Source: Amoebophrya sp. A120 (Eukaryota; Protista; Dinoflagellata). Taken from it: a DNA stretch of 64,000 nt. The translations under genes and the position numbers were made by a program. Below the pieces are notes generated by a model. It was not told the DNA's origin. It ran no database searches and was given only the letters and a program-made list of their open reading frames with translations. The stretch covers positions 11,200,634 to 11,264,633 of the forward strand of contig CAJINV010000002.1 of the NCBI GenBank assembly GCA_905178155.1, in the 5' to 3' direction. Numbering within the stretch: the first letter of the stretch is position 1; each line of letters starts with the position of its first letter. Below are positions 26,508 to 60,700 of the stretch, in pieces.

Positions 26508-26607
26508 NNNNNNNNNNNNNNNNNNNNNNNNNNNNNNNNNNNNNNNNNNNNNNNNNNNNNNNNNNNNNNNNNNNNNNNNNNNNNNNNNNNNNNNNNNNNN
26601 NNNNNNN
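26508..26607. other. Assembly gap (100 N)
   Basis: Run of N. Confidence 1.
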
Positions 26608-27441
26608 AACAGGATTTATTTCCAGAAAATAATTATCGATTGTTTCTGTTTTTGGTTTTGATTTTTCTGATTTATAGTTGATTTGTGATGCAAGAAATAG
26701 TCGATTAGATTGCAAATCCGGCGTCGAAATCGATAAAGAATTTTCACAGTTTTCGAATAGTTTTTTGCACTTCCGGAATAGATCGATTCGATTTTTATTC
26801 TGGTTGAAGTGTCAAGTGGTGGAGAACAATACAGGCATCAGAAGTTAGGTAGATTTTTTTCAAGGCATAAGATTTTTCATCTTTCAGCACCTGTTTTTTT
26901 TCAAAAAATAACGAATCCCATCGGGATATTTGAGATTGTTGGTAGATTCGGATCGTAATTCTTATCGATTATTCTCATCGAGGATCGAGAGTAGCACCCT
27001 GTTTCGGCATCCCTTCTCCGCAGCCCTGGCCAGGTTGTTGGGATCCTTTGTCGAAGTAGGCTCGAGTCCATCCCTAGGAGTTTCGATCCCTTCTCCGCAT
27101 TCGTCTCCCATTTACCGGGGCAGTCTACCTAATCCCAAGCTGATTCTGAACTCATATCCCATTAGAATTCTAGCCCGAACGCGGTTGATCTTTTTCCAGA
27201 TTTCCGTTTCCGTTTTCTGATATTTTTTTCATTTTTATCTGTTGAGATTCCGACCGAGAAGTAGGAGAATTGTTATTTCTTTCTTATTTTTTTTCTGAAA
27301 CAAGTCGCGCCCTATCTCTGAGCAATCCTCGTTTTCAAACAACGAGAAAGACGGCAAGTAGTTGGTTTGGACGTGTTGAGGCCGTGAGCGCCCGTTTTCT
27401 GGCTACTAGGCGCGATAAAGACATCCGAGACAAAATCCAAA

Positions 27442-30400
27442 ATGTTTCCGCCAAATCATGTCGATGGATCCGCACCCGCCGGGTCTCTCACCAATCTGCT
27501 GCACCAGCATCCGCAGCAGCAGCTGCATCAGCACCCGCAGCAGCAGTTGCAGGCCCCGCAGCAGCAGTTGCAGGCCCCGCAGCAGCAGTTCTCGTCTGGT
27601 GTCAACGCCTCCGGGCAGGTGCAGGGTGTCCAACAGTTCGACATCTTCACCCCTTTCAGCCCGATCCGTCAGCCGAACTTCAACGATTATTCCTCCCTGG
27701 CTGATCGTGTTGCCCGCCTGGAGCAGGGTGCGGAGCTGAACACCCGCGCGGCGGAACGGGTCCGCGAGTTGGAGCAGTTGAGTGCGGAACTGAGTGGGCA
27801 GCTGGTTCATGTCGAACAAATCGCGAAGGAGGACCTCGAGCAGCAGCGTGATGATTTCGCTGCTGAACTGGACGAAGTCCGCCAGCGGGCTGACGACCTG
27901 GCCACGACCCTGGAACAGAAACAGGCCGAGGCTGAACAGAAACAGGCCGAGGCCAATAGCCTCGCGGAAAATCTGGACGCCGCTGCGGGCGCGTTGCAAA
28001 AGGAGACGGAACGAGCTACCGCCGCCGAGGCAGAGCTGCTCGCTGTCTATCGCGAATTGGAAAGGTTGCGACGCGAGAAGGAGGAGCGTGAGCACTACGA
28101 AGCGGATCACCGATCTCCCATTTCCGCCACCGGTGGCACCTTGATCCTGTCGCCTGGTGCATCCATCGCGCGCCCTCGGTCCGCTTACGGTGGAAGCGGT
28201 GAGATGGATCTTAATCTTTCGAGTTCATTTCTCAGCCATGCTCCGCCGCGATCTGCCCCCCCCGCACTTGGCAGCACCCCGGTCGCTCCAGTGGTGCCCG
28301 GATCTGTTGGCGATCATGGAAATCCGGTCGTTGCCGCGCCTGTAATCATGGGAACCTCTTCCGCCGGGGTGCAGTCCGCTGCTGCTCCCGTTCCGGGTCC
28401 TACCACGTCTTCTTCTCATGCACAGGTTGTTGGTGTCCCGAACCCCGCAGTTCAGGCGCATGCTTTCCGTCCCCCGACCTTCGTCGGTGTTACCGGGACG
28501 AGTGTTGCTGCGCCCGCCCTGGTCTGTCCGCCAGTCCCATCGGCCGTCGGAGCGTTTGCTGGTCCCGACCCTCCTGTGGGCTCGTCTGCCGATGCATCTG
28601 TTGTTGGTTCTGGACTTGCGAGTGGTCCAGCCCCCGTCGCCCCCATTGTCGGTGCTGTTGTTGCACCTCCGCCTGCTGACCCGCCTGGTGCTGTTGTTGC
28701 TGCACCTGCTGCCGCACACCGAGGGTACATCGCAGCTCCAACTCCGGCCGGAATACCAGTTGTCACGCCGCCGGCCCCTCGTCCAGCTCCCGCACCCGCC
28801 GCTGTTGCTGCTGACGATGTTGCTGTTCCTCCGACGGAGTTAACTGCCGAGACGAAGAAGTTGCTCCACCCTCGGACCCCAACTGCTGGAACCCGCACTG
28901 TCGCTGGCATCGTCTCAAGTATCAAGGACAACAAGAGGCTGGAAGAGGTGCAGAAAACGGTGCTGATCAACACGATCGAGGATTGTGCGAACTATGCCGC
29001 GACCTACTCCGCCCGTGCTTCAGCGTCGAGCGCCTGTCCTGTGGTGAGTAAGGTTTTTTCGAACGGCGCTGCCGCCCGTTTCCTCCGCGCCAACGGTTTC
29101 GCTACCAAGGCCAAGCCGCTCAACGAATCCGTCATCGATGACAATCTGCCCCTGGAGTGGCCCGAAGCCCAGCGGATCGAGTTTAAGATTGCGGAGTACA
29201 TCGCCCAGATCGGTGGCGTCGGCTCGGCCGGTATTTCCGCCCTGTTGCAGCAGCTGCAAGGTGTTAAGGTTCCCGCAGCTGTGAAGCCCTTGGAAGTTGC
29301 CGCGCCGACCCTTGTCTGCGACTCCAGCAGCTCGCAGAAGTCGATGCAGGAGGAGCTGGAAGCCATCTGGATTTTTTTCCGAAAGCATAACTTCGACCAC
29401 CACTGCTACGAAGCGATCGAGTGCAAGTCCGGCACGTCTCGGAGCGCGCTGGATGCGGTTGCCACTGTTTCCAACGAACTGCATCGATTTATCGCTTTCT
29501 ACCTCGAGATCGTCAAGGGGTGCCGCCACACCTATCCCGGAGTGCTGAGGGAAATCATGTCCGGCAGGTCGCTGGCAATCGCGTACGCCCACGAAAACAT
29601 CAGAGCAAGCCGCCTGATTTGGGCCGAGGCCCAGGAACGCATCATGGGTGAACTGGCCCGGGCCGAGTATGTCAACACGGATCCAGGTCGCCGCACCGAC
29701 TCAAAGGTTTATAAAGAAATAGTCTCTGCCTTTAGCATGAGCTTCCTGGAACAATACCTCCGACGGCTTGAGGAGGTCTACCGGTTTTCGGCTGATGAAA
29801 TCGCGGCCCTGTCGTTGTCGACTCTGATTGGGTATCTTAAGGAGGATGCTCGTCCAGGGTTAGAACTGGACCAAGCAAAGTTCTGGGCAGAGAAAACAGC
29901 CCCGAACAGCCGCGGCGCCTCCCGTAACCTCGCCGGTGTTGCTGAACCTGACGACCTCGACCTTGGTGCTGCGCTCGCAGCTGCCGACAAGCAAAACAAG
30001 TCTACCTTCGCGGAAGTAGTCCGGTCGGACACAAATGCCAAGGGCAAGGGTCGCGAGAAATGTAACTCGACAGGGCACGACGATAAAGATCATCGATGCT
30101 TTGTGTGCACCATCGCATTTGCGAACTTCACCTATTCGACCCCACCTAAGCAGATCGATTGTGAAGAATGTGGGTGCAGCCATGCCAGTATCAAGGTCCG
30201 ACGCAAAAGCGGAGCACAGGAGTGGCTCTGTCCGGACAAGATCGCGAGATGGAGAAGAGAAGGAGGCGCCAGAATGCCCGCCGGGCGCTGTACCAGCACC
30301 GGGAAAAAGAACCAACTCAACTCACTTTACAAAAAATGCATAATGTCCCTCGCCGATCAGAGCTGGACCTACGACGACGTCTTTGGCGAAGCAAGTCAAG

Positions 30401-33400
30401 TAAGTGGCGTGCCGGAAGTCATGCAGGAAGCGGGATTAATGGAATGGTGTCAGGCGGAAATCCGGCCGCGTTGGAAGGCTGGGAAACTTCCGGAGCTGGC
30501 TAAACGACTGACAAGCATGGTAGAAGCTGCGGGCGGAGTCGAGGCCTACTGCCAGAACTTCAAGACGGCCCGCGTAGGCGCTTCGACCACTGTGACCCCT
30601 GTCGTTCCGCGCCCAGCTGTTCCCGCTGCGACTTCGTCGACCATTCTTTCTCCTTTCAACATCAGCAGGATGCGAGTCCCTTACGAGCTGGATGATCATG
30701 ATTTTGAATACCCTGCGCCCCGGCCCAGCGCGGCCGGCGCTGAGGACCTTCCTTCCGCGGCGATCGACGTCAACTCCGATGGTGCTACCCTCCGTCTTTC
30801 TGGCGCCGACCTGATCACGAGCGAAGAACATGTCGAGTTTTCTCCTGAAGACAAGCACTGGTGTGCGAGTTCGCAAAACCGCATGGAACTGCTTGCGCTT
30901 TCCGCGTTCTACCATTCGGGATCCAGCATCGGAAGCTTCGCCGGAACTATCGACATCAATGCTGCCCTCCCATCGGAACAGGTCGGGAAACAGGGCGAGG
31001 AAGAAACTGCGACCGGCGATGACGAGTGCGAACCCCCGACGAAGAAGTTGAAACCCGATGAGACTGCGGAGGCTCCGATCGAAAGAGAGGCATACCAGTG
31101 GGGTTTTGCTTCCGAAGACGATCGCGATGAGTTCCTGCATTCGGTTATTCAAGCGGACCACTGGCGGCAGGATTCGGACCGCGGATGGATCAACGTTATC
31201 CCGGTCGGCAAGACCGGGAACAGCATGGCAGATTATTTCTTCATCCACCTCCCGCACGCCGACAGCAACCCGATCGCGTTTGGCCCTGTTTGGTACAATA
31301 AGTTTTTGTCCGACCTAGCATCGGCCCACCCATGGCTGTCCGTTTCTCTCGAGGGTCCCGCTACGAAGGACGCCGCTGCCGCCGTGGAAGCTGCTGCGGC
31401 CGCTGCTGTCGCCGATTTGCATTCGACGTCCGCCCTGCGTGCCATCCATTCTGTTGCCGCCCCGTGCCCGGACGACTATCGTGCAAGAAAGGGACCAGCG
31501 CCTACGGCCCCGCTTCTGACACCCGGAGGAGGAGCGACGGAGCGTGACCCGCTTAGCAACCGCATTGCGTGTGGAATAAAGCTCCCGAACAACATGGGGA
31601 CCCAGATCGTTTCGATGTTGCCGGACTCCGGAAACGGCGCCGGCCGCTGGCTCTACGGAAACTCTTTAGGAAATCGGCAGTGGTTCGAGTCTCGCAACTT
31701 CGAGATCAAGCGGAATCCGAACAAGAAGGAGATGACCGGCTTCGGGACGCCCGCCGCTGGTGTTTTCAACGACGACTGCCGCTACGTAGAAATCGATGCT
31801 GTTTTTTTCGGATGGAACGCGGCTGGCAAGTGGCACGGCCCGGAAGAAAATATTACCGTCGCGCCGAGTGTCGCGCCGCACTGTTTCCGCCGGCGGTTTC
31901 CGACTTCTCTCCTCGATATGTCCAAAGGTGCAAGTATGCAGCTCGACAAACCGGCCGGAGATTCCGAGTTGAAGGCCGCTGTCGTCCAGGCAAAATTCCT
32001 GATCCTGCTGGTCGACTGGACCTACGAAGATGATGTTTGGATCGCGGGAATGGCCGATCTATCGCGACTGGGATTCCAGATGAACGACCCGAAGAGCTTG
32101 TGCGATCTCTATGGCTGCTACTCCTTTACCCGGACTACGCTCGGAGAACCTTTGATGGTACCACGCTGCCCGCACTGGATTAACAACGAGCGGACCCCGA
32201 AGACGAAGATGATCGCCGCTCCGCCCGGTCTTGGCCCCGATCCTGCTACCACCAGCTCCGGCCCGGAGGGTAACATCGCTGACCACCAGTCTGCCACCGC
32301 GAAATCCGTCACATGGGGAACGGTCGAAGAAAATTTTATCAGGATGACCAGGATGCAGAACTTCGAGGAGGGAAAGAACGTCAAGCGACTGTCGCAGTAC
32401 TCTTTTGTCGAAACAGGGTGCAGCGACGAAGATGAGAAGCCAAAGATCCCGACTTTCCGATCCTCCATGGTCAGCGCCGAACATGAAGAGCTTTGGAACT
32501 GGGTGCAGGATGTGGAAACCTCCGACGGCCTGAGAAATCCGAAGCTGGAGACCGACCCTATTAGTGGATGGCTCCAGTATGTTCTGGTCGTGCAGCTCGT
32601 GGGCCTCATCGTCGCTGGGGTTCTTCGCTTCAGCAACTGGGTGGGTGGACCATACTCCTGGCTCGACACCATGAAGCATGGCTCTTGGCTTTGCCTTGAT
32701 CATGCCAAGGGATTTTTGCAGTTCCTCCTACATGAAATGTTGAAAGGATTCTTGGCCCTAGGGTATGGGAATAAAGTTTTTTCCCCCCTCCGCATGTTTT
32801 TGGGGCTCATCTTTGCCCCCGCTTTATACTCGATGTGGGTGGCTCTTGTGTTTGGTTCGCTGACGGATCCGGCGCTTCAGGCGGCCCAGCTGGACACCAT
32901 CACACAGATGAGCAGCCACCAAGCGGCCGCCGACTTGCAGGACCAGCATGGCACCGCTTCAACAGCCTGCACCTATCGAGACTATTGCAGCCACGACACC
33001 AGTACCGAAGACGACCTAATCGCCTCCCTGATCAGTGGCCAACCCTCCGGATCGAGATACTCCGTGCCCTACATGGACGATTGCAACAGCCGGGCCGACT
33101 CACCTGCTGCCCTTCTGATTCGACTCGCGCAGCACTTGGTCCGGGCCTGCGTTTCCGGCTTCAAGTTTTCCCTGTCGAAAATCCTGGTGAAGGCGAAGGT
33201 CTACATCCTAGGCTGGGAGCTGTGCTACAAGACCCGCGGCCGGCGCCCGGATCCAGAGAAGGTCGCCGCTTTCGATGCCCTGCCGATGCCAAGAAGCGTG
33301 AAGGAACTGAAGTCGTTCGTTTGTGTTGCCAACTACATGTCGAACGCCGTCCGCAATTGGCCCGAGATTCTGGACCACTTCTCTAAGTACCTACTGGGGA

Positions 33401-36400
33401 AGATCCCTATTACCAAGCTGGCAGCCGACGAAACAGCAAAGAAGTACTTCGAGTCCTGTAAGGCAGAGCTGCGAAAGGCGGTGCTGCTATCGGAGCTTGA
33501 TGAACTCGCCGCCGTCAACTGGAAAACGACCGGCGGGATTCCACGTTTCGGGATCGACAGCTGCCGCCCGGGGATGTCTGTCTTCGGTATCCAGCGGCAG
33601 CGCGGCCGGGACGCGATTATCTTTGCAGGCCACAAGAGATTTTCCGAAGAGGAACAAGAGCGAAACGCAAACTCGTCAGGTCGAATGGAATTGCTGGGCC
33701 TGCTCCACTTTGTCCGGGAAATCTTACCAAAGATTCCGCTTTCGGTGCCCTTTATCCTTTTCTTCGATTGCAGCTCCACCGGTATCCGGGAGCTGATCAC
33801 GTCTTCCCAGGATGTCAGGACGGAACGGTCCCTGTCGTCAATGGCTTCGGAAATCCATTCCGCGCTGTCCGGCCGCCTCTGTTACCGGGTGCACCGCGTT
33901 GGGTCGTCCAGTAACCTCGAAGACATTGGATCCCGATCCGGCACGGAAGCGAAGCCCGATGGCGTCGAGTCGAACCACGAAGAATGGAAGGAGAAAGTCA
34001 AGGACCTGTTTCAGCGGTTTGAAGGCGCCCCGATCCCGGAGGACCCGGACCTGGAGGAAATACTTTTGCTAGCCAGCCTGCCACCGGCGGATCCGTCTTC
34101 CGACGCCGAGTATTGGACCGTGGACCCATCGGTATTGGAGCCCTTCGTGCCGTCGGAGCATGTCGTCCGCATCGACTGTAGCACCCTGTTTCCGCTACCA
34201 CAAGCGGTCTCGGTCGACATTTCGTTTGCGCCGATGGTATCGATCCCCGGCGCCCCGATAACTGCGACGCCCGCGGAACTCGAGGAAGGGGTCCGGTTTG
34301 AAGTTACCCTACTGGAAAAACATAAAAAAACTGTCAAGCCCCGCGTGGTCCTTCGCGACGTCGTTTCGGGGGAGCAGATCAAGCATGCGCGCTGTCGGCT
34401 CCATCAGGTCGGTCCTGCACCCAACCAAGAGAAACAGGTCGCAGATCCGGGCCCCGATACGAAGGTCAGAAACGCGATCAGTGGAAACGCGACCCAGGAA
34501 CAGATCGACGCGGAGATTACCAAGCGAAAGGAGGCCGCACAGGAAAAGCTGTCAGACCGCGACTTCCACCAACTGATCTGCAATACGCTCCTGAATACGC
34601 TCCCCGCCGAGATGCCGTTCGAGCTGCGCTGCTGCTTCGTCAAAATCTGTTGTGTCCTCCGCGCCGCCCTGTGGGCCCCGGGCCAGCCTTTCCCGACGGT
34701 CCGAATCGCGAAAGCATTCCACCCGATCAACCCGCGGGCCTCCGCCGGTGTCTCGCGGCGTTTCAGCCTGCCTGGCGTGCTGGATCACATCATGAGGTTC
34801 CTGATCGAGGAAGCCATGTCCGAGGGGTTTATCGAGCCCTGGTTTAAGAAGGCCGCCCAGACCGGGGCCCCGTCACTTATATCCAGTATGTTCCTGGCAA
34901 AACGGAAAAAGTCGCTACTGGGGCGGATTGTGGTGGACTGCGTCGGAGTAAATAGACTCTTCGAGGCTGTAACGTGGCCCATCAACTGGNNNNNNNNNNN
35001 NNNNNNNNNNNNNNNNNNNNNNNNNNNNNNNNNNNNNNNNNNNNNNNNNNNNNNNNNNNNNNNNNNNNNNNNNNNNNNNNNNNNNNNNNCCGACGGCTTG
35101 AGGAGGTCTACCGGTTTTCGGCTGATGAAATCGCGGCCCTGTCGTTGTCGACTCTGATTGGGTATCTTAAGGAGGATGCTCGTCCAGGGTTAGAACTGGA
35201 CCAAGCAAAGTTCTGGGCAGAGAAAACAGCCCCGAACAGCCGCGGCGCCTCCCGTAACCTCGCCGGTGTTGCTGAACCTGACGACCTCGACCTTGGTGCT
35301 GCGCTCGCAGCTGCCGACAAGCAAAACAAGTCTACCTTCGCGGAAGTAGTCCGGTCGGACACAAATGCCAAGGGCAAGGGTCGCGAGAAATGTAACTCGA
35401 CAGGGCACGACGATAAAGATCATCGATGCTTTGTGTGCACCATCGCATTTGCGAACTTCACCTATTCGACCCCACCTAAGCAGATCGATTGTGAAGAATG
35501 TGGGTGCAGCCATGCCAGTATCAAGGTCCGACGCAAAAGCGGAGCACAGGAGTGGCTCTGTCCGGACAAGATCGCGAGATGGAGAAGAGAAGGAGGCGCC
35601 AGAATGCCCGCCGGGCGCTGTACCAGCACCGGGAAAAAGAACCAACTCAACTCACTTTACAAAAAATGCATAATGTCCCTCGCCGATCAGAGCTGGACCT
35701 ACGACGACGTCTTTGGCGAAGCAAGTCAAGTAAGTGGCGTGCCGGAAGTCATGCAGGAAGCGGGATTAATGGAATGGTGTCAGGCGGAAATCCGGCCGCG
35801 TTGGAAGGCTGGGAAACTTCCGGAGCTGGCTAAACGACTGACAAGCATGGTAGAAGCTGCGGGCGGAGTCGAGGCCTACTGCCAGAACTTCAAGACGGCC
35901 CGCGTAGGCGCTTCGACCACTGTGACCCCTGTCGTTCCGCGCCCAGCTGTTCCCGCTGCGACTTCGTCGACCATTCTTTCTCCTTTCAACATCAGCAGGA
36001 TGCGAGTCCCTTACGAGCTGGATGATCATGATTTTGAATACCCTGCGCCCCGGCCCAGCGCGGCCGGCGCTGAGGACCTTCCTTCCGCGGCGATCGACGT
36101 CAACTCCGATGGTGCTACCCTCCGTCTTTCTGGCGCCGACCTGATCACGAGCGAAGAACATGTCGAGTTTTCTCCTGAAGACAAGCACTGGTGTGCGAGT
36201 TCGCAAAACCGCATGGAACTGCTTGCGCTTTCCGCGTTCTACCATTCGGGATCCAGCATCGGAAGCTTCGCCGGAACTATCGACATCAATGCTGCCCTCC
36301 CATCGGAACAGGTCGGGAAACAGGGCGAGGAAGAAACTGCGACCGGCGATGACGAGTGCGAACCCCCGACGAAGAAGTTGAAACCCGATGAGACTGCGGA

Positions 36401-39400
36401 GGCTCCGATCGAAAGAGAGGCATACCAGTGGGGTTTTGCTTCCGAAGACGATCGCGATGAGTTCCTGCATTCGGTTATTCAAGCGGACCACTGGCGGCAG
36501 GATTCGGACCGCGGATGGATCAACGTTATCCCGGTCGGCAAGACCGGGAACAGCATGGCAGATTATTTCTTCATCCACCTCCCGCACGCCGACAGCAACC
36601 CGATCGCGTTTGGCCCTGTTTGGTACAATAAGTTTTTGTCCGACCTAGCATCGGCCCACCCATGGCTGTCCGTTTCTCTCGAGGGTCCCGCTACGAAGGA
36701 CGCCGCTGCCGCCGTGGAAGCTGCTGCGGCCGCTGCTGTCGCCGATTTGCATTCGACGTCCGCCCTGCGTGCCATCCATTCTGTTGCCGCCCCGTGCCCG
36801 GACGACTATCGTGCAAGAAAGGGACCAGCGCCTACGGCCCCGCTTCTGACACCCGGAGGAGGAGCGACGGAGCGTGACCCGCTTAGCAACCGCATTGCGT
36901 GTGGAATAAAGCTCCCGAACAACATGGGGACCCAGATCGTTTCGATGTTGCCGGACTCCGGAAACGGCGCCGGCCGCTGGCTCTACGGAAACTCTTTAGG
37001 AAATCGGCAGTGGTTCGAGTCTCGCAACTTCGAGATCAAGCGGAATCCGAACAAGAAGGAGATGACCGGCTTCGGGACGCCCGCCGCTGGTGTTTTCAAC
37101 GACGACTGCCGCTACGTAGAAATCGATGCTGTTTTTTTCGGATGGAACGCGGCTGGCAAGTGGCACGGCCCGGAAGAAAATATTACCGTCGCGCCGAGTG
37201 TCGCGCCGCACTGTTTCCGCCGGCGGTTTCCGACTTCTCTCCTCGATATGTCCAAAGGTGCAAGTATGCAGCTCGACAAACCGGCCGGAGATTCCGAGTT
37301 GAAGGCCGCTGTCGTCCAGGCAAAATTCCTGATCCTGCTGGTCGACTGGACCTACGAAGATGATGTTTGGATCGCGGGAATGGCCGATCTATCGCGACTG
37401 GGATTCCAGATGAACGACCCGAAGAGCTTGTGCGATCTCTATGGCTGCTACTCCTTTACCCGGACTACGCTCGGAGAACCTTTGATGGTACCACGCTGCC
37501 CGCACTGGATTAACAACGAGCGGACCCCGAAGACGAAGATGATCGCCGCTCCGCCCGGTCTTGGCCCCGATCCTGCTACCACCAGCTCCGGCCCGGAGGG
37601 TAACATCGCTGACCACCAGTCTGCCACCGCGAAATCCGTCACATGGGGAACGGTCGAAGAAAATTTTATCAGGATGACCAGGATGCAGAACTTCGAGGAG
37701 GGAAAGAACGTCAAGCGACTGTCGCAGTACTCTTTTGTCGAAACAGGGTGCAGCGACGAAGATGAGAAGCCAAAGATCCCGACTTTCCGATCCTCCATGG
37801 TCAGCGCCGAACATGAAGAGCTTTGGAACTGGGTGCAGGATGTGGAAACCTCCGACGGCCTGAGAAATCCGAAGCTGGAGACCGACCCTATTAGTGGATG
37901 GCTCCAGTATGTTCTGGTCGTGCAGCTCGTGGGCCTCATCGTCGCTGGGGTTCTTCGCTTCAGCAACTGGGTGGGTGGACCATACTCCTGGCTCGACACC
38001 ATGAAGCATGGCTCTTGGCTTTGCCTTGATCATGCCAAGGGATTTTTGCAGTTCCTCCTACATGAAATGTTGAAAGGATTCTTGGCCCTAGGGTATGGGA
38101 ATAAAGTTTTTTCCCCCCTCCGCATGTTTTTGGGGCTCATCTTTGCCCCCGCTTTATACTCGATGTGGGTGGCTCTTGTGTTTGGTTCGCTGACGGATCC
38201 GGCGCTTCAGGCGGCCCAGCTGGACACCATCACACAGATGAGCAGCCACCAAGCGGCCGCCGACTTGCAGGACCAGCATGGCACCGCTTCAACAGCCTGC
38301 ACCTATCGAGACTATTGCAGCCACGACACCAGTACCGAAGACGACCTAATCGCCTCCCTGATCAGTGGCCAACCCTCCGGATCGAGATACTCCGTGCCCT
38401 ACATGGACGATTGCAACAGCCGGGCCGACTCACCTGCTGCCCTTCTGATTCGACTCGCGCAGCACTTGGTCCGGGCCTGCGTTTCCGGCTTCAAGTTTTC
38501 CCTGTCGAAAATCCTGGTGAAGGCGAAGGTCTACATCCTAGGCTGGGAGCTGTGCTACAAGACCCGCGGCCGGCGCCCGGATCCAGAGAAGGTCGCCGCT
38601 TTCGATGCCCTGCCGATGCCAAGAAGCGTGAAGGAACTGAAGTCGTTCGTTTGTGTTGCCAACTACATGTCGAACGCCGTCCGCAATTGGCCCGAGATTC
38701 TGGACCACTTCTCTAAGTACCTACTGGGGAAGATCCCTATTACCAAGCTGGCAGCCGACGAAACAGCAAAGAAGTACTTCGAGTCCTGTAAGGCAGAGCT
38801 GCGAAAGGCGGTGCTGCTATCGGAGCTTGATGAACTCGCCGCCGTCAACTGGAAAACGACCGGCGGGATTCCACGTTTCGGGATCGACAGCTGCCGCCCG
38901 GGGATGTCTGTCTTCGGTATCCAGCGGCAGCGCGGCCGGGACGCGATTATCTTTGCAGGCCACAAGAGATTTTCCGAAGAGGAACAAGAGCGAAACGCAA
39001 ACTCGTCAGGTCGAATGGAATTGCTGGGCCTGCTCCACTTTGTCCGGGAAATCTTACCAAAGATTCCGCTTTCGGTGCCCTTTATCCTTTTCTTCGATTG
39101 CAGCTCCACCGGTATCCGGGAGCTGATCACGTCTTCCCAGGATGTCAGGACGGAACGGTCCCTGTCGTCAATGGCTTCGGAAATCCATTCCGCGCTGTCC
39201 GGCCGCCTCTGTTACCGGGTGCACCGCGTTGGGTCGTCCAGTAACCTCGAAGACATTGGATCCCGATCCGGCACGGAAGCGAAGCCCGATGGCGTCGAGT
39301 CGAACCACGAAGAATGGAAGGAGAAAGTCAAGGACCTGTTTCAGCGGTTTGAAGGCGCCCCGATCCCGGAGGACCCGGACCTGGAGGAAATACTTTTGCT

Positions 39401-42400
39401 AGCCAGCCTGCCACCGGCGGATCCGTCTTCCGACGCCGAGTATTGGACCGTGGACCCATCGGTATTGGAGCCCTTCGTGCCGTCGGAGCATGTCGTCCGC
39501 ATCGACTGTAGCACCCTGTTTCCGCTACCACAAGCGGTCTCGGTCGACATTTCGTTTGCGCCGATGGTATCGATCCCCGGCGCCCCGATAACTGCGACGC
39601 CCGCGGAACTCGAGGAAGGGGTCCGGTTTGAAGTTACCCTACTGGAAAAACATAAAAAAACTGTCAAGCCCCGCGTGGTCCTTCGCGACGTCGTTTCGGG
39701 GGAGCAGATCAAGCATGCGCGCTGTCGGCTCCATCAGGTCGGTCCTGCACCCAACCAAGAGAAACAGGTCGCAGATCCGGGCCCCGATACGAAGGTCAGA
39801 AACGCGATCAGTGGAAACGCGACCCAGGAACAGATCGACGCGGAGATTACCAAGCGAAAGGAGGCCGCACAGGAAAAGCTGTCAGACCGCGACTTCCACC
39901 AACTGATCTGCAATACGCTCCTGAATACGCTCCCCGCCGAGATGCCGTTCGAGCTGCGCTGCTGCTTCGTCAAAATCTGTTGTGTCCTCCGCGCCGCCCT
40001 GTGGGCCCCGGGCCAGCCTTTCCCGACGGTCCGAATCGCGAAAGCATTCCACCCGATCAACCCGCGGGCCTCCGCCGGTGTCTCGCGGCGTTTCAGCCTG
40101 CCTGGCGTGCTGGATCACATCATGAGGTTCCTGATCGAGGAAGCCATGTCCGAGGGGTTTATCGAGCCCTGGTTTAAGAAGGCCGCCCAGACCGGGGCCC
40201 CGTCACTTATATCCAGTATGTTCCTGGCAAAACGGAAAAAGTCGCTACTGGGGCGGATTGTGGTGGACTGCGTCGGAGTAAATAGACTCTTCGAGGCTGT
40301 AACGTGGCCCATCAACTGGTGTGCGGATGTCTGGAAGGAGTTGCTGTCCGGATTTCCGGTCGTCGAATCGGAGGAGTCCGACCCTTCGCCCCCGGCAACA
40401 GCGCCGAAGCCGAAGCAGACCCGACCCGCAGCCACCCGCGAAGAGGACGAGGAAGCGCACGTCGCCCCTGTCGCATCCCCAGAGGAAGCGGCGGAAGAAG
40501 TTGCGATCGCTGCTGCCGCCCTGGCCGACGAAGTCACTGCAAACCCCACCGGGCGGAACGTCTGCAAACACGGCGAAACAGCTACCGAAGAAGAAAACGA
40601 AGACGATGAAACAGACCGAATTTATGATATTTTTGATGATGGAGATGCTCTCATGGAGGACGCCAACGCCCCCGCGGCAAGCCCGGACGCGGACGAGCAT
40701 CTCCTTCCCCCGGAGGATGAAGAACAGCTGCTGAATCCGGACGACGACAGCAAGGAGAAAGTCGCCCCGCTCCGGCTTCCCGAATGGGCTTTCCACATCC
40801 ACTGCCGCCGGAAGGACGACGTCCGGGGCAACAATCTCGTCGTGACCCTCCGCCCGAAGTACATCCTCCCACCCTGTGGTGATCGGTGGCTTCGATATGG
40901 GTTCACGAACCGAAATAAAAAGGCCGGGCCGCCTGAGCGGGCCTACCGACTGATCCGCCAGATGCTCGGCCACGACCTATCCCACCCTATTAGCAAAACA
41001 TGGCGAGAGTATAAAATCCTGCCACCCCGTGCGGAACTGGACGCAGAGTCGGTCTGGTTCTCGCGGAGCATGCATCTCCCACGCGGCGCCAGGCTGTACG
41101 ACGATGAGCACCCGTCCTGCCCGACTGCGCGGGTGATCTTCGACTCCAAGAACTATTTCCTTTTCCAATGCTTTTGCGATCGCGGGCCTGCCGATGCGTC
41201 CCCGTCGGTCGAAGTGGAGTACGGACAGAATCCGGTCGAGATTCAAGCCGAACCGCCTGAGATGGGGCCACTGAAGAAAGGCGCGAAGGAACTCGATGCG
41301 CTCCTCGACAGCCTGGGAACTGTCGACGCCTCGGAAGTTGTAGTATCGACGCCCGGGGACGAACTGCCTGACGAAGATGCCCAGGCGGACTCCATCCTTT
41401 GGAAAACCGCGACGGAACTCGAGCGAGTTATCTTCCCCGCGAGTTCGACCGAGTGGGTCTGGTCCACCATCCACATTCTCGTCGGCGAAGGGCAAGACGA
41501 AACCTATACCGCCGAGAATGCGACGCGGTTCGTCGAGATCCGGGTCGCGCGAGACGATGAAGGAAACATCATGGAAGGAAAGATCCGCCGGTGGGGCGGT
41601 GCTCTGATGTTTCTGGTGGTCGGGGACAGTTTTCTCGAGAAACGGAGGCCGAACACGATCTACCTCCTGTTCGCGCGGAAGCTGATCGCCCTCCTGCACC
41701 TGGAGCCCGATTTCAAAAAAGTTCTAACGGAGACCCAGAAGCGCCAGTTCGTTCTGGAATTTGCTGCCTTCGAGGCCGTCGCCCGATCCGAGGAAGAAGA
41801 GGAGCAGATCGCCCATCTGCTCGCGGTTGCGAAGAAGCATGGCCTCCGCCCGAAACGGAATAAGGCGATGGCGATGCTGGAGCGACTCCCGTCCTACCGC
41901 CTTTGCGGCGACGTCCTGCAATTTCGCGTCCCCCTCCACGGCTGGAAGATCCTGCTGCCCACCCTTGTAGAACCTGAAGAATTTATTTTCGAGGGCCAGA
42001 CCTATGACCATACCAGCATCGCAGTTGCTGTGATCAGTGCGATCCATGCGGTTTCGCACGGACGGAAAGGCATCCTCTACCACCTAACACTGCGAAAAGG
42101 ATTCTTTGTCGAGGGCGGATTGCTGGACCTCTGTGCCAAGATCGTATCCTTATGCATCTACTGCAGCCTCAGCCCCTACGCACAACAAGGCCCGAGCTCA
42201 GTGCGACTGCAACCACGGTTGGAGCTGTTCAGGCACCGGGGACAGGTGCTGTTTATCGATTACATCTGTGGCCTTGCTTCCGGTGACGAGTTCAGCAGCA
42301 TTTTTACGGCCACCGACGGACGAAGCGAGCTGACATGGGCGGAGCCGACGACGGACGCGACGGCAGCCACGGCCGCCGACTGCGTCTTCCGCTTGATGTT

Positions 42401-44330
42401 GGCAACTTTCACACTGTATTCCTACATCCGATGCGACAATGGGTCGCATTTCGGGCGTCTATTTCTGGACACCCTAAACGCGCTCATCCAGAAAATCGAC
42501 CCCCTGCACGAGGTCAAGACCTGGAAGAGTCCGCACTACCTCGCGTCCGGAAACTGGATGGTCGAACACCCTCACCACCTGCTCAACTTTCTGATCCGCC
42601 TGCTACACGCCCTGGCTCCGCCGAGTTTCCGACTGGAGCGACGAAACACGATGGACGGCGAGTTTTTGTTTGTTGTCCTCGACGACCCGAGTATGAAGCT
42701 GGTGGCCGAGAAGAAAAAGATCAACGTGAAGCGCGGCCCGAAAGGGAAGAAACAAGCAGCCGAAGAAGCCGAAGCACAGGAAGAAGATGCGATGGCGTTC
42801 CTGCCTTCCAACTGGTCCGACCATGTCCGCCGTGCTGGTTACCTCCTCGGAATCCAACCGCGGGGCAGCTATGCCGGTGCATCGCTGGTCGAACGGCACT
42901 GGGGTGCTGCAGCGCCGATCGCCGCCAACGAAGCTGTTTTCTCCACAACTGTCGAGGGGGATCTGCTCGATGAAGTTTCGCTCGCGATCAAGAAACGCCG
43001 AGAAACCGACTTCGAAGCTGTCGCGAGCCGCATCTTCAATCACGGTCGAAGCGTGAAGCGCGAAGCCCAGAAAACCGTCAACAAGGACCTGACTGCCGGC
43101 GACACGGTGATCCGCTTGAAACCCGATCGGTCCAAATACGAAATGAAGTTCTTGCCCCGGATTTTCGTCGTCCAGCATCGGAATGCCAACTCGGTCGTGC
43201 TTGGCTGCCTGCTCGGCCGCAGAATCCGCTTCGGGCAACCGCAGGCGATCACGATGGTTCGCGCCCTCCCGCTTACGGAGCCTGCGATCCTGGCCTACCT
43301 GACTGCCGCCCTGACTCCCGGCGAAGTTTCGAAACGCGTAAAGGAACTCGTGCAGCTGGGAACGCTCGACCGCGAGTGGCCCGCCCGCCCGCCCCTGTTG
43401 CGTCGCCAGCCGGAGATCCTACCACCGGGGGAAATCGTGATCGTCTCCTACAACCTCGATGGACTGTTTGCTTCGATCGAAAACGGCCCGAGACTGCTGG
43501 ACCTGGAAGAAATTCTGAAGATGAAGCCCCACCTGATTTTTTTACAAGAGACCAAAGTCTCCCCGTCGCTGGAAACGAAAGCCCGCGACGCGCTCAACGC
43601 ACTGGATTCCGATTACACGATCTACCTGCGCCCGAGCGTCTCCAAGATCGGCTATTCGTCCACTGCTGCCCTCGCCCGCAGAGACCTCCCACACGAATAT
43701 TTTGGCGCGACCCGCTTCAACTCCGAAGTGCAGCATGAAGGTCGCTTCCAGGAAATTGTTGTTGGGGGCGAACACACCTTCGGGAATGTGTACAGCGTGA
43801 ACGCGATGGAGGAGTTGCGTCGCATGAAGCAGGCCCAAGCCTGGGACCTGGACCTGCGTCAGTGGCTCGCCGGCCCGGGAAAGCGGATCCTCATCGGCGA
43901 TTTCAACAGAGTGATCGACCGATCGATTTACGGCCTGCACGGGCGGCACAACCGAGAAACCCCATCGACCTCACGCCAGGAAACTGCCAGCATCCAGAAA
44001 CTGCTGGGGACCGAAAATAAGGCGCTGCAGGTGACGCACGGGAAACGCAGCTGGACCATCTGCACCTATGACAAAACCGGTTTTGCTGTTGATTATCTCG
44101 TCCTGAACAAAGAGGCCCAGGACGCCAACACGGGACCGCTGAAGAACAAACCGACCACCGAAAAGCGCCCGGACCAACTGCAACCAGCGGCGAAGGAGTT
44201 GTTCTGCTCCCCACCCTCCATGACGCTGGAAATCAGAGGAACCCGGCGGGGAATCGACCACCAAATCCTGATTAGCCACATGCGGGTGGGGGAAGATGAG
44301 AAAACTGAAGTGACTGCCGAGGCCTACTAG
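27442..44330 (+). CDS. Retroelement Gag-Pol-like polyprotein (~3852 aa when 27442-34989 is joined to 40320-44330), Ty3/Gypsy-like enzymes plus C-terminal AP endonuclease
   Basis: The N-terminus is Gln-rich, coiled-coil and Pro-Ala-rich, followed by a Cys/His cluster (30061-30235). Protease LPDSG at 31624. RT motif A (LCLDHAKGFLQ) at 32695, motif B (RMFLGLIFAP) near 32791, YMDD at 33070, then KVYILG and thumb PDPEKVAA..PMPRSVKELKSF. RNase H D/E/D/D at 33556/33688/33766/33922. RT fingers GFIEP..SSMFLAKRKK..GRIVVD..VN..WP at 34720-34989. Integrase HHCC at 42045-42164 and D/D/E at 42258/42435/42564. APE SYNLDGL, LQETK, GDFN, DY, DH at 43431-44330. Confidence 0.9.
29760..40319 (+). repeat. Apparently identical 5230-bp direct duplication (29760-34989 = 35090-40319) straddling an N gap; probable unmerged contig overlap
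   Basis: The offset is a constant 5330, all ORFs in the track repeat identically, and the copies abut the 100-N gap exactly. Confidence 0.9.
34990..35089. other. Assembly gap (100 N)
   Basis: Run of N. Confidence 1.
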
Positions 44331-45165
44331 CATCGCAATTACGATTAGAATGCACTAGATCTAGCCTATACTATGACGAATTTTCGCCCCGGAATGAATG
44401 CAAAAGAGAGGCGAAAACCATATCAAAACTAGACTACTTTCAAAGACTTTTACTACTGAAAAAGAACCCAAAACCGACGGCAATCCAGATCCGATAGCTC
44501 GGAGGCATTCGTCGCGATCGGATCGGCACTGTCGTCGGGGGAACAGAAGAAACGAACAGACTAGAAGGAGAAGAGCATGCGTATTTTGATCACTTGTAAG
44601 ATTTAGATGTATGATTTATGATTTTTTCTTTTCAAGATTGCCATGCGATTTCCTTCAAGATGATTTTTTTTCGAAAAGACCAGAACTCACTAGAACCGGC
44701 ATAGAAGTGACTGCTTTTCTTTATATTTTCATAAGGTGAAGAAAAGCAACAAACCACATGTATAATTCTAGAAATTTTACCTTTCTATACCTCACAATCC
44801 AATCCAGGAGTCGACCTTGATAGATCCTTCAGCAGAAGAGAGGCCTTGATACACCAAAAGCCGATCCCATCAAGGATCGGAAATTTCTGCTGAAGAATCG
44901 ATCAAGAAATCGACCTTGGAGATGACAAATTTTCACTCCTTTCTAGATGAAATCTAACAACCAGAATTCGATCAAAACACCACAAGAATCTAACAAATAA
45001 AAAATGACACACTTTCAAATCACGATGAGAATGAGAATGAGAATGAACGATGGAAAGACGACGGGAATCGGATTTGATTTCTCATGCAAAAATGATGATG
45101 AGAAACAAATTTCTCATGCGAAATCCATGGATCAATCTCGATGAAGATGGACACTGACTTTCTCA

Positions 45166-45265
45166 NNNNNNNNNNNNNNNNNNNNNNNNNNNNNNNNNNN
45201 NNNNNNNNNNNNNNNNNNNNNNNNNNNNNNNNNNNNNNNNNNNNNNNNNNNNNNNNNNNNNNNNN
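45166..45265. other. Assembly gap (100 N)
   Basis: Run of N. Confidence 1.
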
Positions 45266-47430: not shown

Positions 47431-50400
47431 TCAAAACTCAACGGCACCAGAATTCAGAAAGTCGGGATTTAGGCGGATTTCCGTTTCGATAGGCATACCG
47501 GCAGCTGCTCCTGACGAAAGATAGTTGTCCAGTGGTGGAGGTGCAGCACCTGGCCCTGCTGTTGCTGACCCCGCGGCGCCTTCAACTTCATCGAGGTTGA
47601 CTCGCGTAGGTCCAGCACTTTCCTCCTCGTCGTAGTTTATGTTGTAAAACGCGTCCTGCAGCGTTCTCAGCTCTTCCGGCCAAACTTCGAGGATGTGTCG
47701 CAGGCTTTGGTGCAGCAGCACCCCTTTGAAGGTACGTAGGTAGGTGATCGCCGCTTCCACCGCAGGGCGTTTCACTGCTTCTCCCAAATTGCCCCCCAAC
47801 CGCCCAACTTTCGTGAGCAGGTCCACCACCAGAGCAGTTCTCCACTTGGCTCCGTCCTTCAGCACGTAGGTGAGACCAATCCGCGTCAATTTCTCAACAT
47901 AGCTGCGGGCAGATTCTTATTCTGTGTAAACGCTTTCTGTCCACCACCTAGAAGGATTCTTTCTCACATTACTTCAGGACTGGACGCATGCAGATTGATG
48001 CATATAATCCGCGACGTCTTATTTGTAAAGCCGACGGCACTTGATCATGCGCATGCAGGCACCATCGTCAAGTAGCTGCGAGTGTCATTATGTATGATGG
48101 TGAATCACCATTGGTGATGCTGCGTCGCCCTGTACAGCCTCTACCTAAACTGGGTGACGACTCCGAGCTCGGGCTGGGCACTTTTGACACAGAATAATTC
48201 TTCCTCGCAGAAGCGCCTGAGCAGCTTCAAAAAAGGAATCAGAGCTGCTCGCGCGTACTGTGGATTTAGAAAACACGCTTGACCCAAAACCTCCAGCAGC
48301 CGGATGCCGTGGCTCCCCGCTAACCTATGTTGTTCGATGGATAGATAGTTCGTGCTGATGGCGATTTAGATTTCGTGCACCGAGGATGTTGACAAATGTG
48401 CTCGAAGGAGCTTGCATCAGTGGGATGAAGTCACTGAGTGTGAGTCATAGTGTCAATCATGATCGCGAAAGAAACAAGTGACCTCGTTTTTCGGTAAACC
48501 GAATGCAATATGCATTTCTTCATGTAAAATCAATCTTAATCTTGAAAATGTGCAGACGTTATACACTTATTTTGCAAAGCTTCTAGCTTAATGCTTCTAC
48601 AACATGCACCTGTCGTGCCCTGCAAGCGCCATGAGGAGATCAAGATCCGCAAGGGACAGGGCCTGGGTCACGTCAAGCTGCTTCAGGAGCTATGGATGTG
48701 TCAGGATCGAAATCGACAATATCGAAAAACTTGTGATGCATAAAATGTAGGGCACTGAAGGCCTGTATTGGGGAGCAGGCAAATGAGACCGATGGCAAGC
48801 CTGTTTAGGGGTATGCAATGCGCTGCCAGAATAGCGTGACAGGGGCAGTCTTCTTTGTCCAAACACCATGACAGACTGGATTTCGGTGCTCCCGAAATTT
48901 GTGATGCGCCACTTGGAAACTGAGGCTCCAACTGGTATTGATTTTATGCATCACAAATCTTTCGATTTTGTCAATTTCGATTCTGACACTTCCATAGGAG
49001 CAGCTCGGCTAATACGCCGACGGGGACGTAGGGCTGTATGGGGCTCTCAAACGTTACATTCTCAACTGTTGCATGATTTGTCATGCAAAAACACTATCAC
49101 TATTCACACGAACAAGCCTGCCTTGCATGGCAACTTCTCGACGCGCTAAATAGCACTATAATCCGTCCCAAATCTGTAATGCAAAAGGCGCAATCTTCCT
49201 CCCGTACTTTTGCCACTCTTGCATTACAAAGAAACTCATGTAACAGTTGAGAATGTAACGTTTGAGAACGCCATAGGCTGCTCGAGAAAGCGAATCAAGT
49301 GCCGCAGCGCGAAGGCGCGAATTGGGTCGGTGGAGCTTGCGGCCCTACTTGTCGAGGAGGAGCCCGCTCCTGTAACGACGTCCTTGTCCTGCTCGCGCTG
49401 GTGATGAAACAGCATGCCTCTCTCCATAAACACGCAGCAAATTGTCCGATACGCTGCGCTCGCGTACCGCACCACCTGCGCCTCGCAGAAGGCCTCCACG
49501 AGGAAGAACAGGCAGGACCAGGCTTGGTAGGTCTCCGTGGTGGCAGGAAACACCAAAGCGGCCGCGCGCAGTCGTTCTAGCAGGCTGGCACAGGCATCAT
49601 CCACAGACATGGGCGACAGCTGGCGGTCGTGAAAGCGCAAGACAAGCTCCGCCGCGAAACAGAGGCCAAGAATGTCGTCCGTTTGCAAACAAAAGTCCAA
49701 CAGCGGCCCGAGGGCACCTTGCGTTGTTTTAATAGAGGCGTAAGCAGCTCTTTTTTTTTTGTAGATCAGGCTCAGGATCAGAAGATGCTGATGCAGTATG
49801 AAAACTAGATGTTGATGTTGTGTACCTTTGTTTATCCTCATAAATAAAGAACATTCTTCTGAGAAAAAAATATCACGTAAAAATTCTTGCTCATTGCTTG
49901 GTTTCTGGTGGTGTAGTATCGTTTGCACCTTGCCAATAGAGCGCTTCCGCTGCGTCGGCTCGTTCCAGGAAACAGCGGCCCAGGAGGTAAATTGTTTCCA
50001 TATCGGCCATTTCCGGGAGGAACTGGGTCCACAACTCTATTTGTGCGTCTCTTGAGCAAAGGTACACAAAAGCTGAAACTGCGTCGGCGGAAATGTTCCC
50101 ATTAGAAACGCCGAGAGGTACCACTCGCGCGACTGGAGAAATGCCGCTTCCAACACCTGCGCGGGAACCACGTGGCATCTTTGTTCGCGCATTTTCCTCT
50201 TTGAACGCAGAAAGTGGTCCCGCTGCAAGGTACCGCTGTGGCCTTGAAGTCGGTGATGAAGTCGCGATTGCGCTTGCTTCTTGTGCTGCCGCAGCTTCCA
50301 TTTGTTCTATGGTAGTGTGACCAGGACCGTCAGGAGCTGACCCATCCTGTCCGCCGGCCTGGTCCGCCGGCTTTATGTTTATCGCATCCGCCTCGCCATA

Positions 50401-57746: not shown

Positions 57747-60700
57747 CGGACGTCGATAAATATTACTAAACAAATGGGAGTGCGTCCCCGGGCCCCTTGT
57801 TGAATCCGAAAAATGCTGTGGGTCGTGCTAATAATTCCTCAACTTTCTCGCGCCCGCTCTTTTTCTCTTGAGAAGAATGTCCGGCGCGCCCTTCGTTTTT
57901 TTTGAGAAGATTCAAAGGGGGCGCGGGGGTCCGAAAGTTCAAGAATATTTATCAATATCCGTACAGATTTCAGAAAGAAATCTAGAACAGATTTCCCCGG
58001 CTATTCTTCAGCGACTTCCCCCCATCGTGTCTCGTTTTTTTTACCTTTCTGGCGCGCTTCTTCTCGGCGCGCGAGGTTTTGCATTTGCTTGCGCGCGACC
58101 TCCGACGCGCCGGAGCGAGGCCGCGCACGGCTTGGAAAGCAAGAGCGCAAACGACGCGCCCCGCGTTCTGTCCTGCGCTTGCGCCAGTGCCGCTCCTTAG
58201 TAAAGCAAATTCTGCAGCATCCAAGACAGCGCGACTGTGCCGCCGCTGGCGACTGGCAGGTCTGGCATGCCAGACCTGCCAACCCAAAAGAAAAAAAAGA
58301 AGAATCAAAATTCTTTTTTTTTTGTTTTTGGGTTGGCAGGTCTGGCATGCCAGACCTGCCAGTCGCCAGCGGCGGCACAGTCGCGCTGTCTTGGATGCTG
58401 CAGAATTTGCTTTACTAAGGAGCGGCACTGGCGCAAGCGCAGGACAGAACGCGGGGCGCGTCGTTTGCGCTCTTGCTTTCCAAGCCGTGCGCGGCCTCGC
58501 TCCGGCGCGTCGGAGGTCGCGCGCAAGCAAATGCAAAACCTCGCGCGCCGAGAAGAAGCGCGCCAGAAAGGTAAAAAAAACGAGACACGATGGGGGGAAG
58601 TCGCTGAAGAATAGCCGGGGAAATCTGTTCTAGATTTCTTTCTGAAATCTGTACGGATATTGATAAATATTCTTGAACTTTCGGACCCCCGCGCCCCCTT
58701 TGAATCTTCTCAAAAAAAACGAAGGGCGCGCCGGACATTCTTCTCAAGAGAAAAAGAGCGGGCGCGAGAAAGTTGAGGAATTATTAGCACGACCCACAGC
58801 ATTTTTCGGATTCAACAAGGGGTCCGGGGACGCACTCCCATTTGTTTAGTAATATTTATCGACATCCGTACGGAATTCAGAAAGAAATCTAGAACAGATT
58901 TCCGCGGCTATTCTGCAGCGACCTCCTCCCATCGTTGCTCATTTTCCTGCGCTTTTTGCCGCGTCCCTTCTCGGCGCGCGTGGTTTTGCATTTGCTTACG
59001 CGCGACCTCCGGCGCGCCGCACTAGTAGAGCGCTACTCTAAGGGGAGCCGCGTGGTCTCTCGCGAAGAAGAGCGAGGACCCTCCTCTACTTCAAATAGAT
59101 TATCTTTTTGAAGACGAAGACTATCCGACCCGTGAAGCAGATCTTATTCTTCTCGCGGATCGTCCTCCTCTTCAGGAAGTAAGATCATCTTTCAGAAGAA
59201 GAGGATCTTCCTACTCGTGTAGAAGATCTGCTTCTTCTCGAGGATCGTCTTCTTCTTCAAAAAGAAGAAGATCTTCCTCTTCGTGAAGCCCAAAGCGCGC
59301 CATGCGCTCCTGCAGAACTTTATCCCCGACGGCGTGATGCGTCGGGGGCGCAAAAAAAGCCAACGAATCTGCCGGCTCGCGTTAAAATGGTTGGCAGGTC
59401 TGGCATGCCAGACCTGCCAACCCAAAAACAAAAAAAGAAGAATTTTGATTCTTCTTTTTTTTCTTTTGGGTTGGCAGGTCTGGCATGCCAGACCTGCCAA
59501 CCATTTTAACGCGAGCCGGCAGATTCGTTGGCTTTTTTTGCGCCCCCGACGCATCACGCCGTCGGGGATAAAGTTCTGCAGGAGCGCATGGCGCGCTTTG
59601 GGCTTCACGAAGAGGAAGATCTTCTTCTTTTTGAAGAAGAAGACGATCCTCGAGAAGAAGCAGATCTTCTACACGAGTAGGAAGATCCTCTTCTTCTGAA
59701 AGATGATCTTACTTCCTGAAGAGGAGGACGATCCGCGAGAAGAATAAGATCTGCTTCACGGGTCGGATAGTCTTCGTCTTCAAAAAGATAATCTATTTGA
59801 AGTAGAGGAGGGTCCTCGCTCTTCTTCGCGAGAGACCACGCGGCTCCCCTTAGAGTAGCGCTCTACTAGTGCGGCGCGCCGGAGGTCGCGCGTAAGCAAA
59901 TGCAAAACCACGCGCGCCGAGAAGGGACGCGGCAAAAAGCGCAGGAAAATGAGCAACGATGGGAGGAGGTCGCTGCAGAATAGCCGCGGAAATCTGTTCT
60001 AGATTTCTTTCTGAATTCCGTACGGATGTCGATAAATATTACTAAACAAATGGGAGTGCGTCCCCGGACCCCTTGTTGAATCCGAAAAATGCTGTGGGTC
60101 GTGCTAATAATTCCTCAACTTTCTCGCGCCCGCTCTTTTTCTCTTGAGAAGAATGTCCGGCGCGCCCTTCGTTTTTTTTGAGAAGATTCAAAGGGGGCGC
60201 GGGGGTCCGAAAGTTCAAGAATATTTATCAATATCCGTACAGATTTCAGAAAGAAATCTAGAACAGATTTCCCCGGCTATTCTTCAGCGACTTCCCCCCA
60301 TCGTGTCTCGTTTTTTTTACCTTTCTGGCGCGCTTCTTCTCGGCGCGCGAGGTTTTGCATTTGCTTGCGCGCGACCTCCGACGCGCCGGAGCGAGGCCGC
60401 GCACGGCTTGGAAAGCAAGAGCGCAAACGACGCGCCCCGCGTTCTGTCCTGCGCTTGCGCCAGTGCCGCTCCTTAGTAAAGCAAATTCTGCAGCATCCAA
60501 GACAGCGCGACTGTGCCGCCGCTGGCGACTGGCAGGTCTGGCATGCCAGACCTGCCAACCCAAAAGAAAAAAAAGAAGAATCAAAATTCTTTTTTTTTTG
60601 TTTTTGGGTTGGCAGGTCTGGCATGCCAGACCTGCCAGTCGCCAGCGGCGGCACAGTCGCGCTGTCTTGGATGCTGCAGAATTTGCTTTACTAAGGAGCG

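Follow-up and report, generated by a model that had tools for sequence, protein, structure and literature searches.

Domains 1–7 of reverse transcriptase (RT) are taken to be a single unit in a fixed, colinear order, and both the annotation and the phylogeny of RTs depend on that. Natural reordering of a right-hand polymerase with its function kept is found in the permuted viral RNA-dependent RNA polymerases (RdRps) of the birnavirus type, in which the palm motifs are reordered within one domain (C-A-B) and which Gorbalenya and colleagues reportedly described in 2002. Among retroelements, the available text of PMC8557442 presents Penelope-like elements with permuted domains as a clade defined by a change in domain order, but there whole endonuclease and RT domains swap and the RT itself is unsplit. 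Families of the long terminal repeat (LTR) kind and of the non-LTR kind have been reported from two Amoebophrya genomes in the accessible part of PMC7789003. Here, we describe an LTR-type retrotransposon in a 64,000-nt stretch of Amoebophrya sp. A120 (the window; contig CAJINV010000002.1, positions 11,200,634 to 11,264,633), in which the N-terminal block of the RT lies behind RNase H. As judged from sequence comparison, this rearrangement inside the RT is real and clade-wide. Literature on LTR elements whose RT is permuted, split or reordered, and on such elements in Syndiniales or alveolates, held no description of this order in titles and abstract beginnings; Repbase, GyDB and most subscription journals were outside that scope, and an earlier record there is possible.

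The element resembles Ty3/Gypsy retrotransposons (Metaviridae; Ty3 RT, PDB 4OL8) in the order protease (PR)-RT-RNase H-integrase (IN), the absence of a connection domain, profile matches of the thumb and RNase H, the catalytic residues of RT (D...YxDD) and of RNase H (D-E-D-D), the HHCC/DDE integrase, LTR-type ends and a run like a polypurine tract (PPT). The integrase-before-RT order of Ty1/Copia is absent. Unlike in Ty3/Gypsy, domains 1–7 of the RT are not contiguous: domains 1–2 follow RNase H (in one relative they stand at the C-terminus), and their usual place is occupied by a hydrophobic helix. Further differences are the single frame (3,852 aa here, up to 6,191 aa in relatives), a C-terminal APE domain and an insertion in the palm. 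The polyprotein starts with a coiled coil and low-complexity region, a putative Gag, a protease motif, RT motifs A–E with the thumb, and RNase H, and continues with a linker of ~250 aa, the RT N-terminal block, an acidic linker, the integrase and an APE1/Xth-like nuclease. In contrast to the permuted RdRps, motifs A-B-C-D-E keep their normal order (A 38025, B 38124, C 38400), and it is the motif F block that has left the domain, across RNase H.

The displaced block (domains 1–2 with the motif F hairpin) lies at 40020–40349, with a cut copy at 34690–34989; these and all other features of the element are on the plus strand. The earlier note on this DNA had placed it behind RNase H and likened it to Ty3/Gypsy domains 1–2, and both statements held. 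A profile built from the blocks of six canonical-order sister proteins, each directly ahead of motif A, matched the window with an E-value of 1e-12 and in this one place only, and the permuted-block and canonical-block profiles matched each other with Prob 99.2. Pairwise scoring with 21 canonical N-terminal blocks of the Ty3/Gypsy and caulimovirus-like kinds, which were taken from viral contigs and whose segment corresponds to Ty3 RT residues 11–144, gave z 7.4, with 0/300 shuffles as good and all top five polyprotein windows overlapping the block. In a forced alignment with nine references nine columns were invariant, and the best hhalign match of the reference profile in 3,079 aa fell at 40116–40331 (E 0.0086). 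Whole-protein profile controls were weaker, with equal scores in 16/1000 shuffles for HMMER and 3/200 for hhalign. The block alone found no RT match in Pfam or among solved structures, nor did a five-sequence family profile. A language-model search with the block placed short eukaryotic clusters on top (0.92–0.94); in one of these clusters, 16% of the members carry RVT_1.

A structural model of the block (helix, hairpin, helix) aligns to HIV-1 RT residues 8–89/101, MMLV 48–141, Ty3 RT 51–143 and CaMV 36–132, and RTs were its top nine matches among 48,161 chains (Z 5.8–7.3); as the model was folded on 21 canonical rows, these matches are biased to the fold that was expected and do not count as independent proof. 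An AlphaFold model made without an alignment for the block stayed below pLDDT 50 for the block and the upstream region and was uninformative on docking. The two basic positions of the dNTP-binding type in the block are both R in 13/13 displaced-type blocks (two of the 13 being fragments without an RT core) and in 10/10 canonical sisters; in Ty3/caulimovirus-like references the second is R in 12/12 and the first is K in 10/12. We take the two positions to be K65-like and R72-like in HIV-1 numbering, which fits the model-aligned range. Taken together, the identification of the block as RT domains 1–2 is supported.

Contrary to the earlier claim, the displaced part is not the complete fingers subdomain. 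The moved unit of ~185 aa comprises the N-terminal fingers segment and a helical extension of ~75 aa (39800–40010), and the other fingers segment, which lies between motifs A and B, remains in place. The extension also precedes the block in the canonical sisters P0020 (E 2e-4), P0018 (1e-3) and P0014 (2e-3) and in the relative P0011 (7e-7). Ahead of it lies a beta-rich domain of ~90 aa (39480–39760), aligned in the 12/12 family members shown; no solved structure matched it. Identification of the linker as a further C-terminal domain of integrase was dismissed (z 0.0), in a weak test that also missed the element's own C-terminal region.

The rest of the RT follows the normal order, and all motif positions given before were confirmed in both copies of a stretch that the scaffold carries twice. 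The RT core (32686–33480; copy 2 38016–38810) includes motif A (32695/38025), motif B (32794/38124), a 62-aa insertion, YMDD (33070/38400), ILGW (33205/38535), the primer grip and the thumb; a profile match reached Prob 96.7, in the HMMER control 0/1000 shuffles were as good, and the core by itself is modelled to fold as an LTR-type RT. RNase H (33520–33940; copy 2 38850–39270) carries D, E, D and D at approximately 33556, 33688, 33766 and 33922 (in copy 2 at 38886, 39018, 39096 and 39252). The insertion between motif B and YMDD spans 38200–38385, and relatives have 50–220 aa or more inserted there.

The usual place of the fingers, ahead of motif A, is occupied by a hydrophobic, membrane-helix-like segment (32566–32625; copy 2 37896–37955). 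The earlier note had read LIVAGVLRFS in this segment as a remnant of the fingers; it is instead part of a hydrophobic helix found family-wide and not a conserved fingers sequence. The 19-residue hydropathy ahead of motif A is 1.5–2.7 in 9/9 permuted-type proteins versus 0.6–0.95 in 6/6 canonical sisters. The helix is conserved just ahead of the palm in permuted members and may serve as a membrane anchor. If a cryptic fingers domain folded from this upstream sequence, the downstream block would be a spare, and hhalign with the window alone did give a weak second match at 37908–38033 (score 22.1 versus 27.8 for the block). This match is not conserved in the family, whose upstream region consists of a GW[KR]-type start and then the hydrophobic helix, with variable spacing and no basic residues. 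The family profile of the region matched none of three fingers profiles (Prob at most 0.3), and pairwise scoring gave z 1.3, with 32/300 shuffles as good; a cryptic fingers domain is therefore very improbable.

The window contains three 100-N gaps, and the locus does hold a 5.2-kb assembly artefact. Positions 29760–34989 and 35090–40319, on either side of the N gap at 34990–35089, are 100% identical over 5,230 nt (artefact 29760–40319). In runs X1 and X2, which come from one sample, contigs read 497 and 2,199 nt past 35090 unbroken, and 40319 is also crossed by other contigs. Given the identity and these unbroken contigs, we infer that the duplicated stretch is a scaffold overlap of one element and not a tandem copy. 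The two contig ends, offered earlier as independent support for the order, are thus one witness and not two. Likewise, the uninterrupted 11.5-kb frame claimed before exists as an open frame only after the overlap is collapsed: a single ORF of 3,852 codons then begins with ATG 27442 and ends with the stop codon 44328–44330, of which 27442–34989 lies on the first contig and encodes the coiled coil, a Pro/Ala-rich region, the putative Gag, protease, RT core, RNase H and the cut block.

These features bear on whether the order results from misassembly or from a one-off rearrangement in a dead copy. No single contig covers the whole element, and the mapped runs may be the source of the assembly itself. 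Nevertheless, the overlapping contigs 39042–39826 and 39591–40581 connect RNase H to the block without joints, and no joint or alternative path was present in contigs mapped to the window. The same order is common to nine relatives of 28–36% identity from other data sets, which, together with the frame open over 3,852 codons, makes misassembly or a dead copy a scarcely credible explanation. Reads also contain a sister copy. Its differences from the window (the 40 best supported of 226, not a random draw) include 37 within the ORF, which change 36 codons, 24 of them silently, against 23–24% expected. In the helical segment adjoining the block (39825–39950), 10/13 changed codons are silent versus 23% expected, which further argues against a dead copy; none of these 40 differences was seen inside 40020–40349, and selection on the block within the Amoebophrya sp. 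A120 genome rests on this adjoining segment. At 44058 the window has A and all contigs of X1, X2 and X5 have T, likely a base error in the window. RNA run X6 contributed 0 reads, which is not a measure of expression.

The relatives emerged in a full HMMER scan of 1.84 billion representatives, which yielded 129 proteins, 21 of them at E 1e-10 or better; all 129 were mapped. Word-based protein searches returned none, and contig scans with the window RT revealed no relatives among metagenome or viral contigs; the DNA behind P0011 was likewise not found. Nine of the top 11 of these 129 proteins (P0001–P0007, P0009 and P0010, four of them named Amoebophrya) share the order of the window, with the RT core and/or RNase H followed by the block and then by integrase where the protein extends far enough. 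P0002, P0004 and P0006 come from Amoebophrya AT5.2, P0003 from Amoebophrya A25, and P0001 is a eukaryote gene model; P0007, P0009, P0010 and P0011 lie on contigs of 15–26 kb, P0010 on three contigs. P0008 is a fragment with the linker and block. In P0011 the unit is located at residues ~2520–2710, at the C-terminus behind integrase and APE, ~1,900 aa past RNase H and again with a beta-rich stretch ahead of it. Lower-ranked relatives holding both modules have the canonical order, and short fragments were uninformative; tandem-pol proteins (e.g., P0038, P0056, P0065), in which a fingers match after RNase H or IN has its own motif A next, were counted as canonical. Rescanning of 35 proteins gave one block copy per displaced protein. 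P0005 (MCX8213704.1; SAR202 bin, 5-kb contig) and P0145 (MAD43545.1; Oceanospirillaceae) are retrotransposon polyproteins labelled as proteins of bacterial metagenome-assembled genomes (MAGs), likely from eukaryotic contigs binned into MAGs.

The relatives retain the motif A aspartate, the acidic residues of RNase H and YxDD, the last in 8/9 permuted ones and in P0011; P0005 and P0007 begin after motif B. In the core tree, which was calculated under two models without a Copia or Bel/Pao outgroup and is therefore unrooted, with several long branches, nine permuted cores are on one side of a branch (100/99), and another branch unites them with P0011 (100/98 and 100/99). P0006, which has no YxDD, was left out of both core trees, the second of which also omitted seven near-duplicate or fragmentary rows; references without a full core were dropped. 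The block tree contains the same displaced split (13 rows, 96/97). Block and core show similar identities (30% versus 28%), and their distances correlate (Mantel r 0.73, p 0.0004, 10 proteins).

The nearest branches in both trees are canonical sisters (P0012, P0013, P0014, P0016, P0017, P0018, P0020, P0021, P0030 and P0061), which share the block signature, helical extension and motif B type with the displaced clade but carry the block directly ahead of motif A. In the unrooted tree, 15 references of the Ty3/Gypsy and caulimovirus-like kinds lie separate from the clade and its sisters. By these comparisons the block-after-RNase H order is real and common to one clade, and the displacement is likely the derived state, because the order is canonical in the sisters and in the Ty3/caulimovirus-like references. 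The P0011 arrangement fits a second move as well as an independent one. P0012, P0014, P0017, P0018, P0020 and P0021 are themselves large canonical-order LTR polyproteins of 1,900–3,100 aa, on a branch separate from the Ty3/Gypsy references.

As the block occurs once per element, keeps its dNTP-binding-type residues and is inherited with the core, it most probably completes the polymerase active site, in whichever mode. Basic residues of motif F hold the triphosphate, according to the available text of PMC4207942; a palm without the block should thus be crippled. An improbable alternative is that the block was retained for some other role (RNA/DNA binding, packaging, integrase support), with the core working without it or through a canonical-order helper element. 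A canonical-order sister does exist in the same genus (P0030, Amoebophrya AT5.2), and the core is highly diverged, with its 62-aa palm insertion. Opposed to this are the character of the invariant residues, which are the dNTP-binding-type ones, the retention of the palm aspartates and RNase H residues, and the co-divergence of block and core.

We favour, with a probability of about 50%, the reading that the polyprotein is cut by the element's protease and that the block then acts as a separate second piece. The polyprotein would be cleaved as in Ty3, the ~185-aa unit (helical extension and motif F hairpin) would fold back onto the palm, and the two invariant arginines would bind the incoming dNTP. 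Priming of complementary DNA (cDNA) would take place at the primer-binding site (PBS) and the PPT, and its insertion would fall to the DDE integrase, with the APE domain possibly acting on damaged or uracil-derived abasic DNA. In the accessible part of PMC5371799, Ty3 IN is made by polyprotein cleavage, and Ty3 RT is an asymmetric dimer of two differently folded chains. The location of the P0011 unit behind integrase and APE suggests that its position is free, which favours a separate piece.

Several observations weigh against a cleaved second piece. No cleavage site was identified in the polyprotein, P0011 is a single protein on one contig, and foamy virus PR-RT stays uncut in the available text of PMC8402755, a precedent for partial processing. 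P0006 lacks YxDD, and the block itself departs from the canonical form (D to E or A in 2/13, N to Y in 1/13, and YR after D lost). Furthermore, RNase H and the block are 228–305 aa apart in 9/9 members, with the conserved beta-rich domain inside this interval, which suits an uncut tether. It is possible, if tentative, that one polypeptide extends from palm and thumb through RNase H and the linker to the fingers block, a single-chain permuted RT whose block folds onto its own palm or that of a dimer partner. The linker far exceeds the span of the enzyme, as RT dimensions are generally known, and all the conservation evidence fits equally well; in P0011, however, such a tether would require RT, IN and APE to remain uncut. 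A more specific version of the cleaved-piece reading, which we consider rather doubtful, is a two-chain RT with the nucleotide-binding fingers carried on the integrase-APE chain, where integrase would have to dock onto the palm for DNA to be made. The block is on the integrase side of RNase H in both arrangements, and an ordinary RT/IN cut would thus leave it joined to integrase.

The clade breaks the RT unit and keeps it broken across ~70% protein divergence, in two positions. The break is a natural point of division within an LTR-type RT, and assembly of fingers and palm from separate chains becomes testable, a question of relevance to how RTs evolved and to the design of split RTs for genome-editing tools. 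The permuted order lets such elements escape annotation: Pfam RVT_1 reaches only E 0.25 on the window RT and also misses, at the E 0.01 significance level, the permuted relatives scanned.

The earlier note mentioned neither the APE domain at the C-terminus nor the LTR ends. The APE1/Xth-like nuclease domain (43440–44290; stop at 44328–44330) keeps its catalytic motifs and matches PF03372 (E 6e-9), APEX1 (E 7e-7) and xth (E 3e-10); its 32 solved-structure matches at E 0.01 are all APE1-type enzymes, with no L1 endonuclease. Pfam detects the domain in P0001, P0007, P0009 and P0011, and a family profile adds P0002, P0004, P0006 and P0010, which makes 8/35 rescanned proteins, all displaced-type; P0003 and P0005 stop before integrase. 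Canonical sisters gave no APE match at E 0.1, several of them being incomplete proteins. On this distribution, an APE domain behind integrase is a trait of the displaced clade. APE-type non-LTR elements (L1 and relatives) also have an exonuclease/endonuclease/phosphatase domain in the ORF of the RT, but here it is C-terminal, after a DDE integrase, accompanied by a protease and of the APE1 type. The accessible part of PMC5348765 describes no APE-bearing LTR element.

The presumed 3' end of the 5' LTR (26608–26814) terminates in GTGTCA, a 5/6 imperfect inverted match to the start of the 3' LTR, and its remainder is lost in the N gap at 26508–26607. A primer-binding-site-like TGG motif, whose 9-mer is unique in the window, follows 2 nt past the LTR end (26817–26827). 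At the other side, a polypurine-tract-like run (44831–44843, 12/13 purines) lies 3 nt ahead of the 3' LTR, which starts with TGATAC (44847–45165) and enters the N gap at 45166–45265. Hence there is a CA end before the PBS-like motif and a TG start after the PPT-like run; the two LTR pieces do not overlap and both run into N gaps. Two contigs put the TG start of the 3' LTR next to other flanks and one more follows a diverged version, as a sign of further insertions and of a sister family.

An aspartic protease motif, LPDSG, is found at 31618–31632 (copy 2 at 36948); the segment has no Pfam match but matches the relatives P0002, P0004, P0006 and P0067, and the motif position holds D[ST]G in P0002 and P0004. 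No Gag family matched the window polyprotein, and the stretch rich in Cys and His near 30080 does not form a canonical knuckle. The acidic linker and the unassigned region before integrase occupy 40350–41700. The integrase (42042–43270) consists of HHCC at 42042–42165, D 42258, D 42435, E 42564 and a C-terminal region, and Pfam rve matches it at E 3.9e-5, below Pfam's curated cut-off.

Elsewhere in the window, 57747–62513 forms a nested palindromic array of ~1.1-kb inverted units with a 2,276-nt period and 99–100% identity, either a foldback element or an assembly artefact. Two related 306-nt elements (2330–2635 and 48690–48996), 68% alike and with terminal inverted repeats of 51–57 nt, are MITE- or introner-like. 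A coiled-coil protein with FLQ motifs, presumably of a type known from dinoflagellates, has exons within 1215–3453; no Pfam family reaches its cut-off there.

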